IMG/VR virus record: IMGVR_UViG_3300001528_000425
Location: 1 to 64,000 of that record
Length of the DNA stretch: 64,000 bases
Direction: 5' to 3' (one strand)
Source: a virus
Taxonomy: Duplodnaviria > Caudoviricetes
Shown here piece by piece: positions 5,570-49,037 of the stretch; position 1 is the first letter of the stretch, and each line of letters opens with the position of its first letter. A model generated the notes under the pieces. It saw only the letters and a list, made by a program, of their open reading frames with translations. It searched no databases and was not told the origin of the DNA. A program made the translations under genes and the position numbers.

Positions 5570-5778
5570 GTTAATTCCTCGTTAATGAACGCTTGATTAT
5601 TGTTTTACGAAACTCATGGGGTGTACATTCCATGAGCGCGACTCCAATAACTACCGGTAGCCTTCATTTCAGAAGAATAGGAAAGTGTTATCCAGAAATA
5701 AAACTTAAGTGAATGTTATTGTGTTCCTTTCTTGGTTAAATAGATTAAAGGTTGAATACGACACACACATTCACTTAA

Positions 5779-5786
5779 GTAATATA
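5779..5786 (-). promoter_or_regulatory. Early promoter motif TATATTAC (representative)
   Basis: Same motif on minus strand upstream of gene arrays at 8954, 19429, 32994, 35206, 40449, 41945; TACATTAC variants at 48574, 49320, 52135; matches the established phiKZ early consensus. Confidence 0.85.
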
Positions 5787-5886: not shown

Positions 5887-7305
5887 ATGGTAGATTTATT
5901 CGCAGACATGCCTGTCAAAGTGGCACCACCTTCTGTCTGTTTCAACACGGACAGTATGTTCGACTTGCAAGTTGGTAATGCCCTTCGTGGACACGATGGG
6001 ATGTGGTACATCAACGGCGGATGGGGACAGGCGATCGCTGGTGTACACAGCTTCGGTGGGATGTATAAAAGCACCTGGTCGGGAAGCCTCTTGCTGAGAA
6101 CAACTTCACTCTATCAAACCCAAGCTGTTATCGGTGACAGTGAGGATGCGATCAGCCGTGATCGTGAACGCCTGATCCGCATGTCTGGAGATCATCCGAT
6201 TGCACTGGAAGAAACCACTGGTAAGAATCAAGTGGTTTGTCTCGACTGTAAGGTTGAGTATGACATCGATGGGTTGTTTAAGTTCCTGAGAGAACTGGGA
6301 GAGAACAAACTCAAGCATCGGAAAGAGATGACAATCACCACACCTTTCCTTGATCCTGCAACTGGTAAGAGGATATCAGCGTGGCAACCAACCCCTATCT
6401 TCATCGACTCTCTGACAGAGATGCACAGCAACGATGAATTGACTCAAATCGAAGTGGGTATCGACGATAAGAAGACTAAGACCGTATACATGATCGATGC
6501 CAACAAGAAGACTCTTCTTCTTCGGTGGCTGAGTAAGATGTGTATGGAGTACGGATTCATCGCTTGCTGTACCGCACATTACGGAGCAGAACTCAATCTC
6601 GATTCCTACGGTCCGACACCGAAACAACTTCAATACATGAAGCAAGGCTACAAGACCAAGGGAGTGGGAAGTAAGTTCACTTTCCTCACCTCCCCACAGT
6701 GTCAGATCGTGTCAGCGAAAGTGTTGGACGATGACAAGCATGAAGCTTGGTACAAATACGGCAATACGTCGCCTACCGATATCAATGAAATCGGTGTGCA
6801 GATCCAACGTTGCAAGAATAACGTGTCCGGGAGTGTATTCACCTACATTGTATCCCAGTCCAATGGATTGCTTCCGGATATTTCGGATTATCATTACCTT
6901 CGTACCAACAAACTGTTCGGTATGAATGGCAATCCTCAGAATCATCAGCTTCAGTTGTATCCTGACAAGAACTTGTCCAGGAACACGGTCCGACAGGCTT
7001 CTGATGAAGATCCGAAGCTGAGACGTGCTCTGCAACTGACAGCGCAGTTGCTGTACGTTCAACAGCATTGGAACACCGATACCATTCCCTTCGAGGTAAG
7101 GGTGGAACCAGGCGCACTTCTGGATGCACTGAATTCCGATCATAACAAACTGTCTATGGATCGGATACTGAACAGTCGTGGGTACTGGCTTCCTGACGAA
7201 ATCAAGTGTGATCAAGAATACATGAGTGTTTTCGATATCCTCGAATTCGTCGATAAATGCAAGCTTATACCTAAGAAAAACACTGTCATCGTAGCCAAAA
7301 AATAA
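5887..7305 (+). CDS. uvsX: UvsX/RecA-like recombinase
   Basis: 472 aa; Walker A-like GGMYKST, DSE, Walker B IFIDSL, RCKNN segment; size typical of phiKZ-like RecA. Confidence 0.8.
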   Translation: MVDLFADMPVKVAPPSVCFNTDSMFDLQVGNALRGHDGMWYINGGWGQAIAGVHSFGGMYKSTWSGSLLLRTTSLYQTQAVIGDSEDAISRDRERLIRMSGDHPIALEETTGKNQVVCLDCKVEYDIDGLFKFLRELGENKLKHRKEMTITTPFLDPATGKRISAWQPTPIFIDSLTEMHSNDELTQIEVGIDDKKTKTVYMIDANKKTLLLRWLSKMCMEYGFIACCTAHYGAELNLDSYGPTPKQLQYMKQGYKTKGVGSKFTFLTSPQCQIVSAKVLDDDKHEAWYKYGNTSPTDINEIGVQIQRCKNNVSGSVFTYIVSQSNGLLPDISDYHYLRTNKLFGMNGNPQNHQLQLYPDKNLSRNTVRQASDEDPKLRRALQLTAQLLYVQQHWNTDTIPFEVRVEPGALLDALNSDHNKLSMDRILNSRGYWLPDEIKCDQEYMSVFDILEFVDKCKLIPKKNTVIVAKK

Positions 7306-7367
7306 GGATCAAGTACACTACCCAGAGGGAGCATTTAAGCTCCCTCTGGGTAGTGGTTTACCTTATT

Positions 7368-8126
7368 TTATTTGTCGGTTTCTTTGGAGACAAGCCGCAG
7401 AGTGTATTTGATGCACTTTCTATGGACGTTGTCGTCTTCATCGACATATGCCTGCTCCGTTTTATCGTATACCAACTCAAGGTTCTTGTTGATATAAGGC
7501 AGGTATTGAGCATTGATTTCAGCGATAGCCGCCTCCTCATCGATGACGTCACATTCCCTGACATCAAACTCCCATGACCAGCCTTCTTTGATCATGGAGA
7601 TGTACGCAGACTTTCATTTCAACTCGATGAATTGAATCACGTGAGGGAGCTGACGCAGGAGGAGATCGATCAGTTGATTCACGAGATGAACGGCGCTATC
7701 ATGAATTCATCTCCGAAAGATGCTAAGTTCGTGGTGCAGATCGGGTTCACGCCGATGTTGTCGTGCATACCCGCTCCCGGCAATATCTTCGGACCACTCC
7801 CTCCGTTCTATATCGAGCTCTTCCCAATCAACGAGGCGCGTATTCGGCAGCATATCCGTAAATCGAAACGCATCCGGACGAACACAATCTTCAATCAGAT
7901 CATGCACGGCTGCAACCAGTTCGATGGCACTGCAAAGTCTGCGTACATCAGGACGTTCCCGTATCGTATGAAGTAATCGTCCGGAATAGAAGTTGACGTA
8001 TTCCACCAGGCAAGTACCGAGGGCGAGGTAATGTTTACAATGCTTGGCATCAGCTGATTCGCTAGCGTTCATCCCAGCTTCATTGAGCAGGGCGTAGACT
8101 TCGACGTTGGGTTCGAAATGATTCAT
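7368..8126 (-). CDS. Hypothetical protein interrupted by an internal inversion (252 aa if 7599-7949 is flipped; 139-aa product 7707-8126 as assembled)
   Basis: ATG at 8126 with AAAGGAG RBS; ORF pieces 7707-8126(-), 7599-7949(+) and 7368-7598(-) join in frame on inversion. Confidence 0.75.
7599..7949. repeat. Perfect 16-bp inverted repeat bounding a 351-bp candidate invertible segment
   Basis: GATGTACGCAGACTTT at 7599-7614 and AAAGTCTGCGTACATC at 7934-7949. Confidence 0.9.
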
Positions 8127-8151
8127 GTTTTTACTCCTTTTAATTAGGTTG

Positions 8152-8517
8152 TTATAAGGACCACCGAATTGTGGTACCATAGGTTTCATTGAATTTGCAG
8201 TACATGGCGAATCCGATTCTCTTACTTACTCCATTTGGAGAAGTCTCGAAGAGATCGGTTACTGGGAGTACGACTGTCCCGACTGTCCCTAGTGTGTCGT
8301 GACAATGTTCAGAGAATAACTCTCTTCCCACTTCGACTGTGGTATCGGAAGATAGAAGAACCTTGAGAGAATCCTTCATCGTTCGATCGTTGAACGTAGC
8401 TTGAAGGCCTCTTGTAGCCAAGAAGAACTTCAGTCGTTTTGTTCCCATACATAGATGTATCGAGATGGTTGTTCCTAAGTCCTTCAGGAACTCTTTGATG
8501 TTTTGTAGTGGTGTCAT
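8152..8517 (-). CDS. Hypothetical early protein
   Basis: 121-aa ORF, GGAGGGAG RBS. Confidence 0.6.
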   Translation of the reverse strand: MTPLQNIKEFLKDLGTTISIHLCMGTKRLKFFLATRGLQATFNDRTMKDSLKVLLSSDTTVEVGRELFSEHCHDTLGTVGTVVLPVTDLFETSPNGVSKRIGFAMYCKFNETYGTTIRWSL

Positions 8518-8526
8518 TCTCCCTCC

Positions 8527-8913
8527 TTAGACGATGATAGTGAAACGAATCGGTTTCAGATAGGTGGATTCGATGGTGCACTTAAATCCACATACGATTC
8601 GAGCATTGGTCTGTGCCAATATCGTTCTGGACACCGTGACGAAAGACACACTATCCGACACACCAGCGAAGATCTGTCCGACGATAGATTTCGGTATCGA
8701 GATACACCAGATCTCTGCACTGGCGTAATATCGATCGTGGATATACTGCCGTATCGCCGTACGGATGATGAGCTCTTCGTCCTCCGATGGTGGAGTGGAA
8801 GGGAAATGTTTCACTCTCAATGCCAGTACATCTTTCACGGCACCTTGTTTCAGATACCGCTTAAGCTTGTGGACGAACCATCGAACTTTAAACCACGTAA
8901 TAATCGATTTCAT
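8527..8913 (-). CDS. Hypothetical early protein
   Basis: 128-aa ORF, AAGGAGG RBS, first gene after promoter at 8954-8961. Confidence 0.65.
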   Translation of the reverse strand: MKSIITWFKVRWFVHKLKRYLKQGAVKDVLALRVKHFPSTPPSEDEELIIRTAIRQYIHDRYYASAEIWCISIPKSIVGQIFAGVSDSVSFVTVSRTILAQTNARIVCGFKCTIESTYLKPIRFTIIV

Positions 8914-9056
8914 GATACTACCTCCTTGATTGGTTGACTGTTAGATCAATAAGGTAATATATGCCTGAAATCAATTGATAGTCTAGATGAGCTGTCCCGC
9001 CATATCTATGTAAATTTAGCATTGACAAACCCTATTTACTATTAAGGGAGTTCCTT

Positions 9057-10906: not shown

Positions 10907-13783
10907 ATGGCAGACCCAATCAGACGCAAACGTCTACCGGGGAGTCGGAACTCGTCCTACGAATTGAAGGACCATTTGGTGATGACTCTCCCCGGAGGCG
11001 GAAATGCAAATCCTCACCCTCAGTATCTGCTGAAGGATGACTATATCGCCAGCGAAGGTGATAATAACCTTGCTGCTCACAAACTCGACCCGAATGCTCA
11101 CATCAATTTCTATGTGAGATTGGTTCAGATCAGTACAACGAATGTGAATGATCCGGACAAGATCCCTGCTTCTTCACTGTTCTTCACAACAGTGTCGAAT
11201 CTGCAAACGCAGATCGATGGCAGAGCTTTGATCGATCATACGCACACCCCCGAATCTATCGGCGCAGCAGATCGTATTCACAACCACGATACGCTGTATT
11301 CCAAGCTCGATCACAATCACGATGATCGTTATTCCAAATTGGATCACACCCACACTCCTGTGGAGATTGGTGCAGCCGATCGTATTCACAACCACGATGA
11401 TCTGTACATCAAGATCTCTGACATTTCGACCACGTTCGAAACAAGTGACACGAAGGTTCCTTCTATCAGTTTGGTGACTGATTTGAACACGAGATTTGTG
11501 AACCATGATCACGATGACAGGTATTCCCTTATCACACATATTCACCCGTATGTGTTGATTTCTGATCTGGAGGATTCTGGTATCTATCCGGAACTGGTTG
11601 TAATCCAGAATACGGAAGGAACAGACGATGAAGGACAGCCTGTCGTCACCACGGAAGATCTTAACACCTATCAGACGATCGGCAATTATTTCGTTCTGAA
11701 TGGCGTGCTTAATGCGCCAGAAGCCGGCAATGGCTGGTTGACGGTAGAACCCGTGGAACTCGAAGAAGCACAAACCGACGATGATGATCGTTACACTGGC
11801 CCTGGCGTGGCTTATGTCATGCAGCGATTCCTTTCGGAATCTACCGGTACCCTCTATTATCGTAAAGGAACGCGAGTTATCGTTGAAACTCCAAGTGAAG
11901 ACCCGGAAGATCCGGATATTCAGACACTGACCTACAACTGGGCTGGATGGGAATCTCTGTCCGGAGGAGGTGGTGGCAAGGTTCCATTTGAAATCTTTCA
12001 TACGCTTTCCACGCAAACTCCACCTGGAGCATTTCCTCTGTGGACTGGTGAATGGATCGAGAACTGCAGAACCAAATACCCCTCCTTCTGGAACAAAGCT
12101 CTGGAACTGAGAGATGCGGATACGGGAGCTTTTGTCTATGCCGACATGACTCCGGTTGCTATGCCTTTCTTGAAAGGAACGAATAACACTACCACAACCG
12201 CCGATGGAACCTGGACCGGCGAAGCTTCTGACGGAACGAATGATTGGCAAGTATTTGGTGATCTTGGTGTCGGAGGTAATGTCGATATCACGAAGCTCTC
12301 GACAACTCCGTTTTGGATGTCGTTGGCTACATCAGGAGATCCGATCAGCGTCGTTTCCTATGAAGTACAAGCAACGAACAATTCCGAGAAGGATATATTG
12401 ACAACTCCAACTGCATGGAAACTGGAAGGTACCGTCGATGGATCTTCCTGGGATCTTATCGATACCCAAACAGGTATCACTTGGAGTGCTATCAACGAAC
12501 GGAAACGGTTCACCGTCACCCCATCGGAAGCAGCTTTCCATACGGCAGCACAAGTAACAGCCGCTGAAGCTATTTTGGCATTGGCGGAATACGAACAAAC
12601 GATCTATGATCCGAATCAAGAAGAAGGATCTGAGCCAGGAGTTCGCACTTACAATGTTGGATCTACCAACTCGAGTTACAACTCATTGGATCTGATCTCC
12701 ATTGAGTTCCAATCGGCCGATGGTTGGGTTGTGGTCGATGATGTTGAAATCACCAATGCTGGTGGTATCTATTCAGTTGACCTGTCCACAGCCTCCGAAG
12801 GCGCTGGCGCCTACCGGTGGCACTACACTGGTAAAACAGTTGCCCAACAGCAGTTGGATGCCTGGAATAAGACTGGTGCACAGAAACGCCCAATAACTCC
12901 AACTACCTACAAGAAACTCAAGATCACTTTCACGGAGTGTTCAACAAAGCCCAACTCCAACTCTACGATGGGACGTGTTAACTTCATGATGGAGAAAGTC
13001 GGCCAGCCTGGACGGCAGATCGGTAACATCAACGTCATGGATGCGACCACCTACGAGTATTTCCTTGAGAAGTATGGAGAAGTTGGTGGTTTTGTAATCG
13101 ATGAAGCCAACGGTAAGATCCGTCTTCCTCTGATCAATCGATTCCTTCGTACGATCGAAGACATCAACGATCTCGGTACAGTTCAAGCTGATGAGTTCAG
13201 ACGACATGAGCATAGTTCGGTCGTCGGACCTTTGTATGTACGACCATCCGTCCATGCACCTGGCGCCGATGGTGACCATTGGCACCACAACGATGCTAAC
13301 CCGACTGGAAGTGTAGGCGGTTCCGAGACCAGGCCAAAGAACGTAGCAGTTGCTACTTATATCCAAGTGTCTGGTTCAGTCGGTTCCGGTGACACAACGA
13401 AGAGTGCATCGGATGTTACAGCACTGGCTACGCAGGTGGAACAACTCACCAATAAGGTTGACGCGTTGGAGTATCTTGCCGATTTGATCCACATCAGTGG
13501 CAGCTCGGCAGAACCTAACGGTTATGTAACCCTGTCCAATGGCCTCACCATTCAATGGGGACATCTCACTGTGGATGCGGATGTTAATTCACCACAACAT
13601 GTGACATTCCCGAAGGAGTTCGCATCAGAAACATTAGCTGCAGTTGCTTCGAGCAATGGCAATAATCATGCTGTGGTACAGGTTCGCAACTTCACTACCT
13701 CTGGTATGGACATTGCTGCCAACGACCCTGGCAATGGCGCTAAAGTTGTCACTGATGCGAGTTGGATCGCTATCGGCAAGTAA
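10907..13783 (+). CDS. Long tail fibre / receptor-binding protein
   Basis: 958 aa; NPHPQY, many HxH repeats, knob domain, tail-collar-like segments (TPPGAFPLWTG ... KIRLP ... ETRPKNVA), discoidin-like insert (PTAWKLEG...SWDLID), C-terminal GYVTLSNGLTIQWG. Confidence 0.85.
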   Translation: MADPIRRKRLPGSRNSSYELKDHLVMTLPGGGNANPHPQYLLKDDYIASEGDNNLAAHKLDPNAHINFYVRLVQISTTNVNDPDKIPASSLFFTTVSNLQTQIDGRALIDHTHTPESIGAADRIHNHDTLYSKLDHNHDDRYSKLDHTHTPVEIGAADRIHNHDDLYIKISDISTTFETSDTKVPSISLVTDLNTRFVNHDHDDRYSLITHIHPYVLISDLEDSGIYPELVVIQNTEGTDDEGQPVVTTEDLNTYQTIGNYFVLNGVLNAPEAGNGWLTVEPVELEEAQTDDDDRYTGPGVAYVMQRFLSESTGTLYYRKGTRVIVETPSEDPEDPDIQTLTYNWAGWESLSGGGGGKVPFEIFHTLSTQTPPGAFPLWTGEWIENCRTKYPSFWNKALELRDADTGAFVYADMTPVAMPFLKGTNNTTTTADGTWTGEASDGTNDWQVFGDLGVGGNVDITKLSTTPFWMSLATSGDPISVVSYEVQATNNSEKDILTTPTAWKLEGTVDGSSWDLIDTQTGITWSAINERKRFTVTPSEAAFHTAAQVTAAEAILALAEYEQTIYDPNQEEGSEPGVRTYNVGSTNSSYNSLDLISIEFQSADGWVVVDDVEITNAGGIYSVDLSTASEGAGAYRWHYTGKTVAQQQLDAWNKTGAQKRPITPTTYKKLKITFTECSTKPNSNSTMGRVNFMMEKVGQPGRQIGNINVMDATTYEYFLEKYGEVGGFVIDEANGKIRLPLINRFLRTIEDINDLGTVQADEFRRHEHSSVVGPLYVRPSVHAPGADGDHWHHNDANPTGSVGGSETRPKNVAVATYIQVSGSVGSGDTTKSASDVTALATQVEQLTNKVDALEYLADLIHISGSSAEPNGYVTLSNGLTIQWGHLTVDADVNSPQHVTFPKEFASETLAAVASSNGNNHAVVQVRNFTTSGMDIAANDPGNGAKVVTDASWIAIGK

Positions 13784-38929: not shown

Positions 38930-39275
38930 ACACAATTCAGTCCCAACATGATCACATAAGAGTGTAGAAAGTTTCACCATGATAACCACCATATAGGTTA
39001 ACAAGGATGACTTATCTAGATACTCTTACGTGTTTGATTTCGGTGGAACCAAAGTTCCGATGGGTTTGTGGAATCTGCCGAGCCAGAGCAGGAGCGTGTA
39101 CTCCATAAACTGGCGTCAAGCGTCTTACAAGTAAGTCAAATGTCGAAAGCTTCATAGTGAAGTCCTCCTAACCAACTCAGGGAACAGTAGGTGCTGGCGG
39201 CACCTACTGTTCCCGTCTATTAGTTTATTTGAAATACGAAGGTAATTGATGATTGTGCGACCGACTGAATTGTGT
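38930..39275. ncRNA. Unrecognised structured element, copy A (candidate large ncRNA)
   Basis: 13-bp terminal inverted repeat, long bulged hairpin, conserved core shared with 48617-49037; no ORF. Confidence 0.7.
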
Positions 39276-48616: not shown

Positions 48617-49037
48617 TACGAGTTCGATCCGAATAGATGTGAGGTAAGTTATATCCGGATGAGAGTTAGAGCAGACGGTACGATCGTGAACTTACCTCTA
48701 CACGATCACCGAGTTCATTTTACTGTAAGTAAATAATTACATCCTCCTAGCCATTGTATAGGCTAAGATAGGAATGATCACTTACTTACAGTTACATGAA
48801 CTACTTTGTTGCAAGCAAAATTCTGCTCTGTGAGTAAGATCTGCCTTGCCACGGCAGGAGCGAAAGATCCGTACCGTGGTGTAAGCTGTCTTACAAGTTG
48901 ATTGAATGTGGAAACATGCATTGGCATTCTCCTATCTAGCTTAGATCCTCCTAGGGTGCCGCTAGCACCCTAGGAGGATCGCACTATTTACATTTAATCA
49001 TAGGTAATTGCTTTCAGGGCGACTGATCGAACTCGTA
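48617..49037. ncRNA. Unrecognised structured element, copy B (candidate large ncRNA)
   Basis: 13-bp terminal inverted repeat, long bulged hairpin, extra 10-bp loop pairing, core shared with 38930-39275. Confidence 0.7.

Follow-up and report, generated by a model that had tools for sequence, protein, structure and literature searches.

A 351-nt segment of this viral genome (positions 7599–7949), bounded by a perfect 16-nt inverted repeat, is very probably inverted relative to an ancestral continuous gene, as indicated by tests of the repeat, the reading frame, the translation signals and the codon usage taken together. The explanation that we favour, and regard as probable if by no means certain, is a recent spontaneous inversion at a 16-bp inverted repeat present by chance, which would have disrupted a dispensable accessory gene and become dominant in the sampled populations.

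Genomic setting and reading frames

The window, that is, the whole 64-kb stretch of DNA analysed here, is the first part of a 235,559-bp viral contig that has direct terminal repeats and is rated complete. The segment lies in the third and last gene of an operon on the minus strand; this operon, made up of three small genes, is located downstream of a UvsX-like gene and convergent with it (5887–7305; phrog_97, E = 1e-19); this is the adjacent UvsX reported in the initial annotation. The UvsX-like protein shares at most ~30% identity with its counterparts in phiKZ-like jumbo phages that have been cultured (from Pseudomonas, Ralstonia, Erwinia and Bacillus), and 69% with that of one other uncultivated contig of 238 kb, named L003. 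The three small genes of the operon match no known family in Pfam and PHROGs scans. The features of the locus are as follows.

8913, minus strand: ATG of the first gene of the operon (128 aa), with an 8-nt Shine-Dalgarno match
8517, minus strand: ATG of the second gene (121 aa), with an 8-nt Shine-Dalgarno match
8126, minus strand: ATG of the third and last gene, which contains the segment, with an AAGGAG Shine-Dalgarno motif
8134–8139, minus strand: this AAGGAG motif, 7 nt upstream of ATG 8126
7950–8126, minus strand: N-terminal coding part, 59 codons, left unchanged by the flip; codon-usage score 0.18
7934–7949: right arm, perfect 16-nt inverted repeat, AAAGTCTGCGTACATC; the breakpoint lies inside the arm
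7599–7949, plus strand: segment taken to be inverted, 351 nt or 117 codons with both arms; plus-strand frame open
7707–7709, minus strand: premature stop, which ends the 139-aa product as assembled
7599–7614: left arm of the 16-nt inverted repeat, GATGTACGCAGACTTT
7368–7598, minus strand: C-terminal coding part, 76 codons and the stop at 7368–7370; codon-usage score 0.42
7316–7355: hairpin with a perfect 17-bp stem and a loop of 6 nt, lying where the UvsX-like gene and the gene containing the segment converge

The two arms are exact reverse complements of each other (100% complementary) and stand 319 nt apart. Their complementarity ends abruptly, with 0 extra bases outward or inward at either arm, and the 16-mer has neither self-complementarity nor internal dyad symmetry nor an imperfect extension; no second copy of it was found in the genome. 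When positions 7599–7949 are flipped in silico, the plus-strand frame of the segment joins both flanks and a single uninterrupted frame of 252 aa runs from ATG 8126 to the stop at 7368–7370. The flip is exact and reciprocal: both junctions are present, no base is gained or lost and there is no indel. The position and exactness of the repeats, the rebuilt 252-aa frame and the in-frame residues at both junctions all agree with the initial annotation.

As assembled, the frame that starts at ATG 8126 crosses the right arm and continues for 75 more codons up to the stop at 7707–7709, giving 139 aa in total. The product is indeed a different protein whose C-terminus is read from the antisense strand, as had been claimed. 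In its minus frame, the segment carries stops at segment codons 80 and 111, while its plus frame carries none. The C-terminal part, in the present orientation, is left as a stranded 75-aa ORF that starts at ATG 7595 without a ribosome-binding site, and a gap of 111 nt separates the premature stop from ATG 7595, where the other gaps of the operon measure 9 and 25 nt. In the restored arrangement, the end of the 252-aa gene is followed after 13 nt by the hairpin at 7316–7355, which is likely to be a bidirectional terminator closing the minus-strand operon.

A Shine-Dalgarno match of at least 4 nt precedes 79% of the ORFs of at least 150 aa in this genome versus 33% of random positions, and a 6-nt match such as that of ATG 8126 is found at 1.4% of random positions. 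No Shine-Dalgarno match was found at ATG 7595, the start of the 75-aa ORF, or at TTG 7632, the start of the plus-strand ORF, which bears out the earlier remark that the latter has no credible ribosome-binding site and sits inside a minus-strand operon.

Two side observations concern hairpins in this region. In a genome search, a weaker copy of the sequence of the hairpin at 7316–7355 matched itself on the opposite strand. Upstream of the UvsX-like gene, between divergent genes, lies a perfect inverted repeat with 14-nt arms and a spacer of 50 nt (window 5703–5780), possibly a regulatory or terminator hairpin.

Chance expectations, codon usage and RNA structure

The 16-nt repeat is the only perfect inverted repeat of at least 16 nt with a spacer of 50–2000 nt in the whole 235.6-kb genome, and hence its longest spaced inverted repeat; in 40 first-order Markov shuffles, such repeats averaged 0.125 per genome. 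We defined a frame-restoring flip as one that creates a new open frame, absent before the flip, extending at least 50 codons past both junctions. Among 20,000 random segments, 0.57% gave such a flip. Of the 1,367 repeat pairs other than this one, seven did so, all with arms of 9–10 nt, in keeping with the chance rate. Since the longest inverted repeat of the genome is also frame-restoring, against a background of ~0.5%, a chance origin of the arrangement is unlikely: a unique 16-nt repeat (0.125) and frame restoration (0.005) have a joint chance below 1e-3. The central claim of the initial annotation, an inversion of the segment with respect to an intact 252-aa gene, is thus well supported by these geometry statistics and by the layout of ribosome-binding site and terminator.

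Codon usage points the same way, if weakly. The segment scores 0.265 in its plus frame, compared with 0.30 ± 0.12 for real genes, and 0.169 in its minus frame, compared with a mean of 0.137 ± 0.12 for the codon-aligned antisense frames of the phage, which in a frame-matched comparison corresponds to a likelihood ratio of ~3 in favour of plus-strand coding. The highest score among the three pieces of the gene is that of the C-terminal part (0.42). The plus-strand ORF had been described as good-looking; it is open, but this proves to be weaker evidence than it seemed, with a likelihood ratio of only ~3 and with 31% of the codon-aligned antisense windows of 117 codons in this phage free of stops, so that an open antisense ORF is unremarkable in itself.

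These last two values also speak for the reading that no inversion took place, in which case the locus would natively consist of a 139-aa gene, a 111-nt spacer, a separate 75-aa gene and perhaps an antisense 114-aa gene, the repeat being a coincidence or an RNA stem. The gene callers did split the locus in this manner, accepting both the 139-aa and the 75-aa ORFs, and the genome contains perfect 13–14-nt repeats with similar spans (346–421 nt) at 38930–39275 and 48617–49037 (modules A and B), as well as a third at 98194–98607 that is counted here from its repeat and span alone and was not found similar to module A (E = 0.17). We nevertheless consider this reading highly improbable, given the joint chance of less than 1e-3 for the unique repeat together with frame restoration, the lack of a ribosome-binding site at the 75-aa and plus-strand ORFs, and the 111-nt gap unlike those of 9 and 25 nt.

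A variant of the same reading takes the segment as a structured RNA module closed by the repeat stem. Compared with shuffled sequences, and with the closing stem included, the segment folds at z = −0.9 on the plus strand and −1.1 on the minus strand, while the modules at 38930–39275 and 48617–49037 reach z = −6.7 and −11.1. Modules A and B share a core, and the segment shows no nucleotide or translated similarity to either of them. With chance-level folding and no similarity to the modules, the structured RNA variant was rejected.

Shorter repeats are themselves in excess in this genome, which has 19 perfect spaced inverted repeats of at least 13 nt versus 7.2 in Markov shuffles (~2.6 times commoner), an excess that derives in part from the stem-closed modules at 38930–39275, 48617–49037 and, probably, 98194–98607. 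Outside the window, at genome positions 87897–88545, perfect inverted repeats abut one another in a nested pair spanning ~600 nt, and the same flip test applied to them restored no frame. The pair consists of the following arms.

87897–87911 and 88476–88490: 15-nt repeat
87911–87924 and 88532–88545: 14-nt repeat

Assemblies, relatives and the origin of the probable inversion

The exact 139-aa product is recorded on two contigs, the one that contains the window and a 17,392-bp contig of JGI 3300001525 (chfec4_10001081). As this product exists in the flipped orientation only, its record denotes that orientation. The second contig is collinear with the window over the 10,420 nt compared, with one mismatch at window position 12854, and it has the same orientation of the segment, without a difference at either junction. 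When the flanking genes (121 aa, UvsX and 75 aa) were looked up by exact identity, a test independent of the orientation of the segment, these two contigs alone were matched; the two possibly come from related samples or overlapping read sets. From the coordinates, the JGI contig is expected to extend ~3.5 kb beyond the first position of the 235.6-kb record, as would suit a genome with circular permutation or terminal redundancy and assembly break points that differ between the two contigs.

The second contig bears directly on an artefact, in which the real phage would carry the intact 252-aa gene and the inversion would have been made by the assembler or by chimeric molecules such as those formed during MDA. 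A random misassembly is unlikely because a separately assembled contig, distinguished by one SNP, shares both the orientation and the junctions, and a 16-nt repeat is shorter than assembler k-mers and should not confuse the assembly graph. The source record is, admittedly, a metagenome assembly, and the 16-nt homology at the junctions fits the priming of MDA chimeras, which are mostly inverted joins primed at 2–21 nt of complementarity (PMC1855051). These chimeras typically have single junctions with intervening deletions (PMC1855051), whereas here both reciprocal junctions are present and the number of bases is unchanged. The chimera offered in the initial annotation as one possible explanation is thereby weakened, since the same orientation and identical junctions recur on a contig with different ends and one SNP, and we consider an artefact of either kind very unlikely. 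Searches with 25–32-mers spanning the junctions gave no match in viral_contigs or metagenome_contigs, two collections that omit near-identical records, including the junction-bearing JGI contig, so that these empty results carry no weight.

The intact form was sought among known proteins and genomes. Megablast and tblastn searches with all three pieces against 50,697 phage records gave no match, and Pfam and PHROGs scans of the three pieces, as well as scans of viral_contigs with the middle and C-terminal pieces, were empty. Among 5.8 billion clustered proteins, none of at least 206 residues carries the middle piece and none of at least 134 residues carries the C-terminal piece; as no longer protein is present in this collection, the intact 252-aa form has not been assembled anywhere. 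On these searches, the 252-aa gene is an ORFan. Modelled by AlphaFold2 as single sequences, the 139-aa product and the middle piece reached mean pLDDT values of 41.6 and 42.5, respectively, and the models were unusable.

When the middle piece was compared exhaustively by phmmer with 1.84 billion representatives, the one match (E = 5e-4) was to a helical motif that recurs in a 794-aa surface protein of repetitive sequence. We judged this match spurious, compositional rather than homologous. The weak resemblance involves three stretches within window positions 7644–7796, residues 16–66 of the plus-strand translation of 7599–7949.

The initial annotation had proposed to look for conservation of the gene and of the repeats in related phages. 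The only relative, L003, has neither: none of the pieces is matched across its 238 kb, nor are the repeats conserved there. The slot flanked by the UvsX-like and fibre-like genes holds the three small ORFan genes here (window 7306–9056) and two unrelated small genes of 113 and 135 aa in L003 (6384–7495). The flanking fibre-like gene encodes 609 aa here and 722 aa in L003. This difference in gene content indicates that the slot is variable and probably dispensable, and, judged from gene content, it appears to be a hypervariable accessory island flanked by conserved genes.

Under the spontaneous inversion that we favour, two 16-bp inverted repeats would already have been present inside the coding sequence of a small accessory gene, and the central 351 bp would have been inverted between them by a non-programmed event. 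Being the longest inverted repeat of the genome, this pair is where a spontaneous inversion is most likely to occur. The route may have been short-homology recombination, a UvsX-type recombinase being encoded by the phage, or else a template switch from one arm to the other, between molecules, during replication; 16 bp is, however, short for efficient recombination of the UvsX/RecA type. The inverted form would be the dominant or only one in the two sampled populations. Its effect would be the loss of the 252-aa protein, translation from ATG 8126 running into antisense sequence and stopping after 139 residues, while the last 76 codons would be left without a ribosome-binding site. That all three pieces have stayed open and can be joined in frame would make the event a recent one.

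Several points temper this reading. None of the pieces has a homologue that would give external proof that a 252-aa form ever existed, codon usage discriminates weakly between the frames, and the two supporting contigs may not be independent. The spacers of documented template switches measure a few bases, compared with 319 nt here. Moreover, three perfectly open pieces mean that the event was very recent or that selection still acts on the intact orientation, so their preservation would equally fit a segment that still flips and is selected when intact. We nevertheless infer that the 252-aa form was ancestral and that its inversion was spontaneous rather than programmed. Of the possibilities listed in the initial annotation, the fixed one-off inversion is the closest to the reading favoured here, a single orientation being seen in two assemblies.

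If the favoured explanation holds, the locus offers a clean natural case of an inversion at a short inverted repeat that breaks a gene of a giant phage, exactly at the longest inverted repeat of its genome. For annotation, the 139-aa and 75-aa ORFs called as genes would then be artefacts of rearrangement.

Possible programmed switching and known inversion systems

A reversible intragenic inverton, in which the segment would flip within the population between the 252-aa protein and the recoded, truncated 139-aa form, is unlikely. Its catalyst would be a host invertase, an unrecognised phage enzyme or the phage recombination machinery acting on the 16-bp arms. The anatomy of the locus matches the 'premature stop' class of bacterial intragenic invertons, and the intactness of the three ORF pieces is as expected if the intact orientation were still under selection. 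In addition, the perfect arms persist after the flip, so that reversal is mechanistically possible; spacer inversions between inverted repeats have been reversed over short evolutionary times, with spacers of a few bases (PMC8604942).

Enzyme and site both speak against such a switch. The initial annotation had noted that no invertase is encoded in the window, and this absence extends to the complete 235,559-bp genome for four families: neither PF00239 (Resolvase) and PF07508 (large serine Recombinase) nor PF00589 (Phage_integrase) and PF01548 (IS110/Piv-type DEDD) were detected, while control genomes were positive. The phage thus has no serine, large-serine, tyrosine or IS110/Piv-type recombinase among these families, although a host enzyme could still act. 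The arms are exactly 16 nt long, with mismatches immediately outside and inside, which falls short of the at least ~26 bp with dyad symmetry of a serine-invertase site; the repeat has neither the extension nor the internal dyad of hix and gix sites, and it is the sole site of its kind in the genome. Both known assemblies have one orientation, no 252-aa form occurs among the 5.8 billion clustered proteins, and the gene and repeats are absent from the one relative, L003. With no invertase, no site-like substructure, no second copy and no relative carrying the gene or the repeats, the phase-variable interpretation suggested in the initial annotation gained no positive support.

A truly reversible inverton, made of a 351-bp in-frame cassette and driven by the phage's own recombination or replication machinery or by a host enzyme, is quite unlikely in this lytic phiKZ-like jumbo phage, in which no invertase is recognisable, and the argument for this more exciting reading is a geometric one throughout. 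If true, the inverton would toggle an accessory protein between 252-aa and 139-aa forms, which could serve, for example, as bet-hedging if a host defence were to sense that protein. Coexisting orientations would matter much more than a single inversion, as the intragenic invertons described to date are those of bacteria rich in invertases, while this one would be found in a virulent jumbo phage without any.

Within this phage, the segment resembles the stem-closed modules in that a perfect inverted repeat of 13–16 nt brackets ~350–420 nt. The modules are, however, intergenic, strongly structured and share a core, whereas the segment is unstructured, unrelated to them and located inside a reading frame.

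Among classical switches, the G segment of phage Mu (Gin), the C segment of P1 (Cin) and the Hin system of Salmonella have an adjacent serine invertase gene, an enhancer and kilobase-sized segments. Their crossover sites are ~26–34 bp long with internal dyad symmetry, and Gin, Cin and Hin are associated with two alternative functional tail-fibre ends. What our locus has in common with these systems is a stretch between inverted repeats whose orientation alters the C-terminal part of a phage protein. Unlike in them, there is no serine invertase, no long dyad site, no enhancer, no kilobase-sized segment and no alternative fibre end.

Bacterial intragenic invertons are closer in scale, with short repeats (e.g. 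11 nt) located entirely within one gene (Chanin et al., PMC10028968). They are defined by reads in both orientations and presumed to be driven by invertases, of which their hosts encode dozens (PMC10028968). Our locus shares with them a repeat pair wholly inside one gene, the alternative between a full-length (252 aa) and a truncated product, and the split ORF. It differs in being known in one orientation, from assemblies only, and in belonging to a phiKZ-like jumbo phage without a recognisable invertase.

The remaining comparison is with yeast, where template switching between the arms of inverted repeats reversibly inverts the spacer in coding genes (Abraham and Hazkani-Covo 2021, PMC8604942). 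In that study, the arms were longer than 9 nt, the screened spacers measured up to 70 bp and the inverted spacers changed 2–5 bases (PMC8604942). The present case departs from these by its spacer of 319 nt, by its premature stop instead of the replacement of 1–2 amino acids, and by an ancestral state that, with no gene-bearing relatives, is not demonstrable. It agrees with the yeast inversions in its perfect short arms (16 nt here) inside a coding sequence, in the inversion of exactly the spacer, in a route for which no recombinase is needed and in the survival of the arms, which makes the change reversible in principle.
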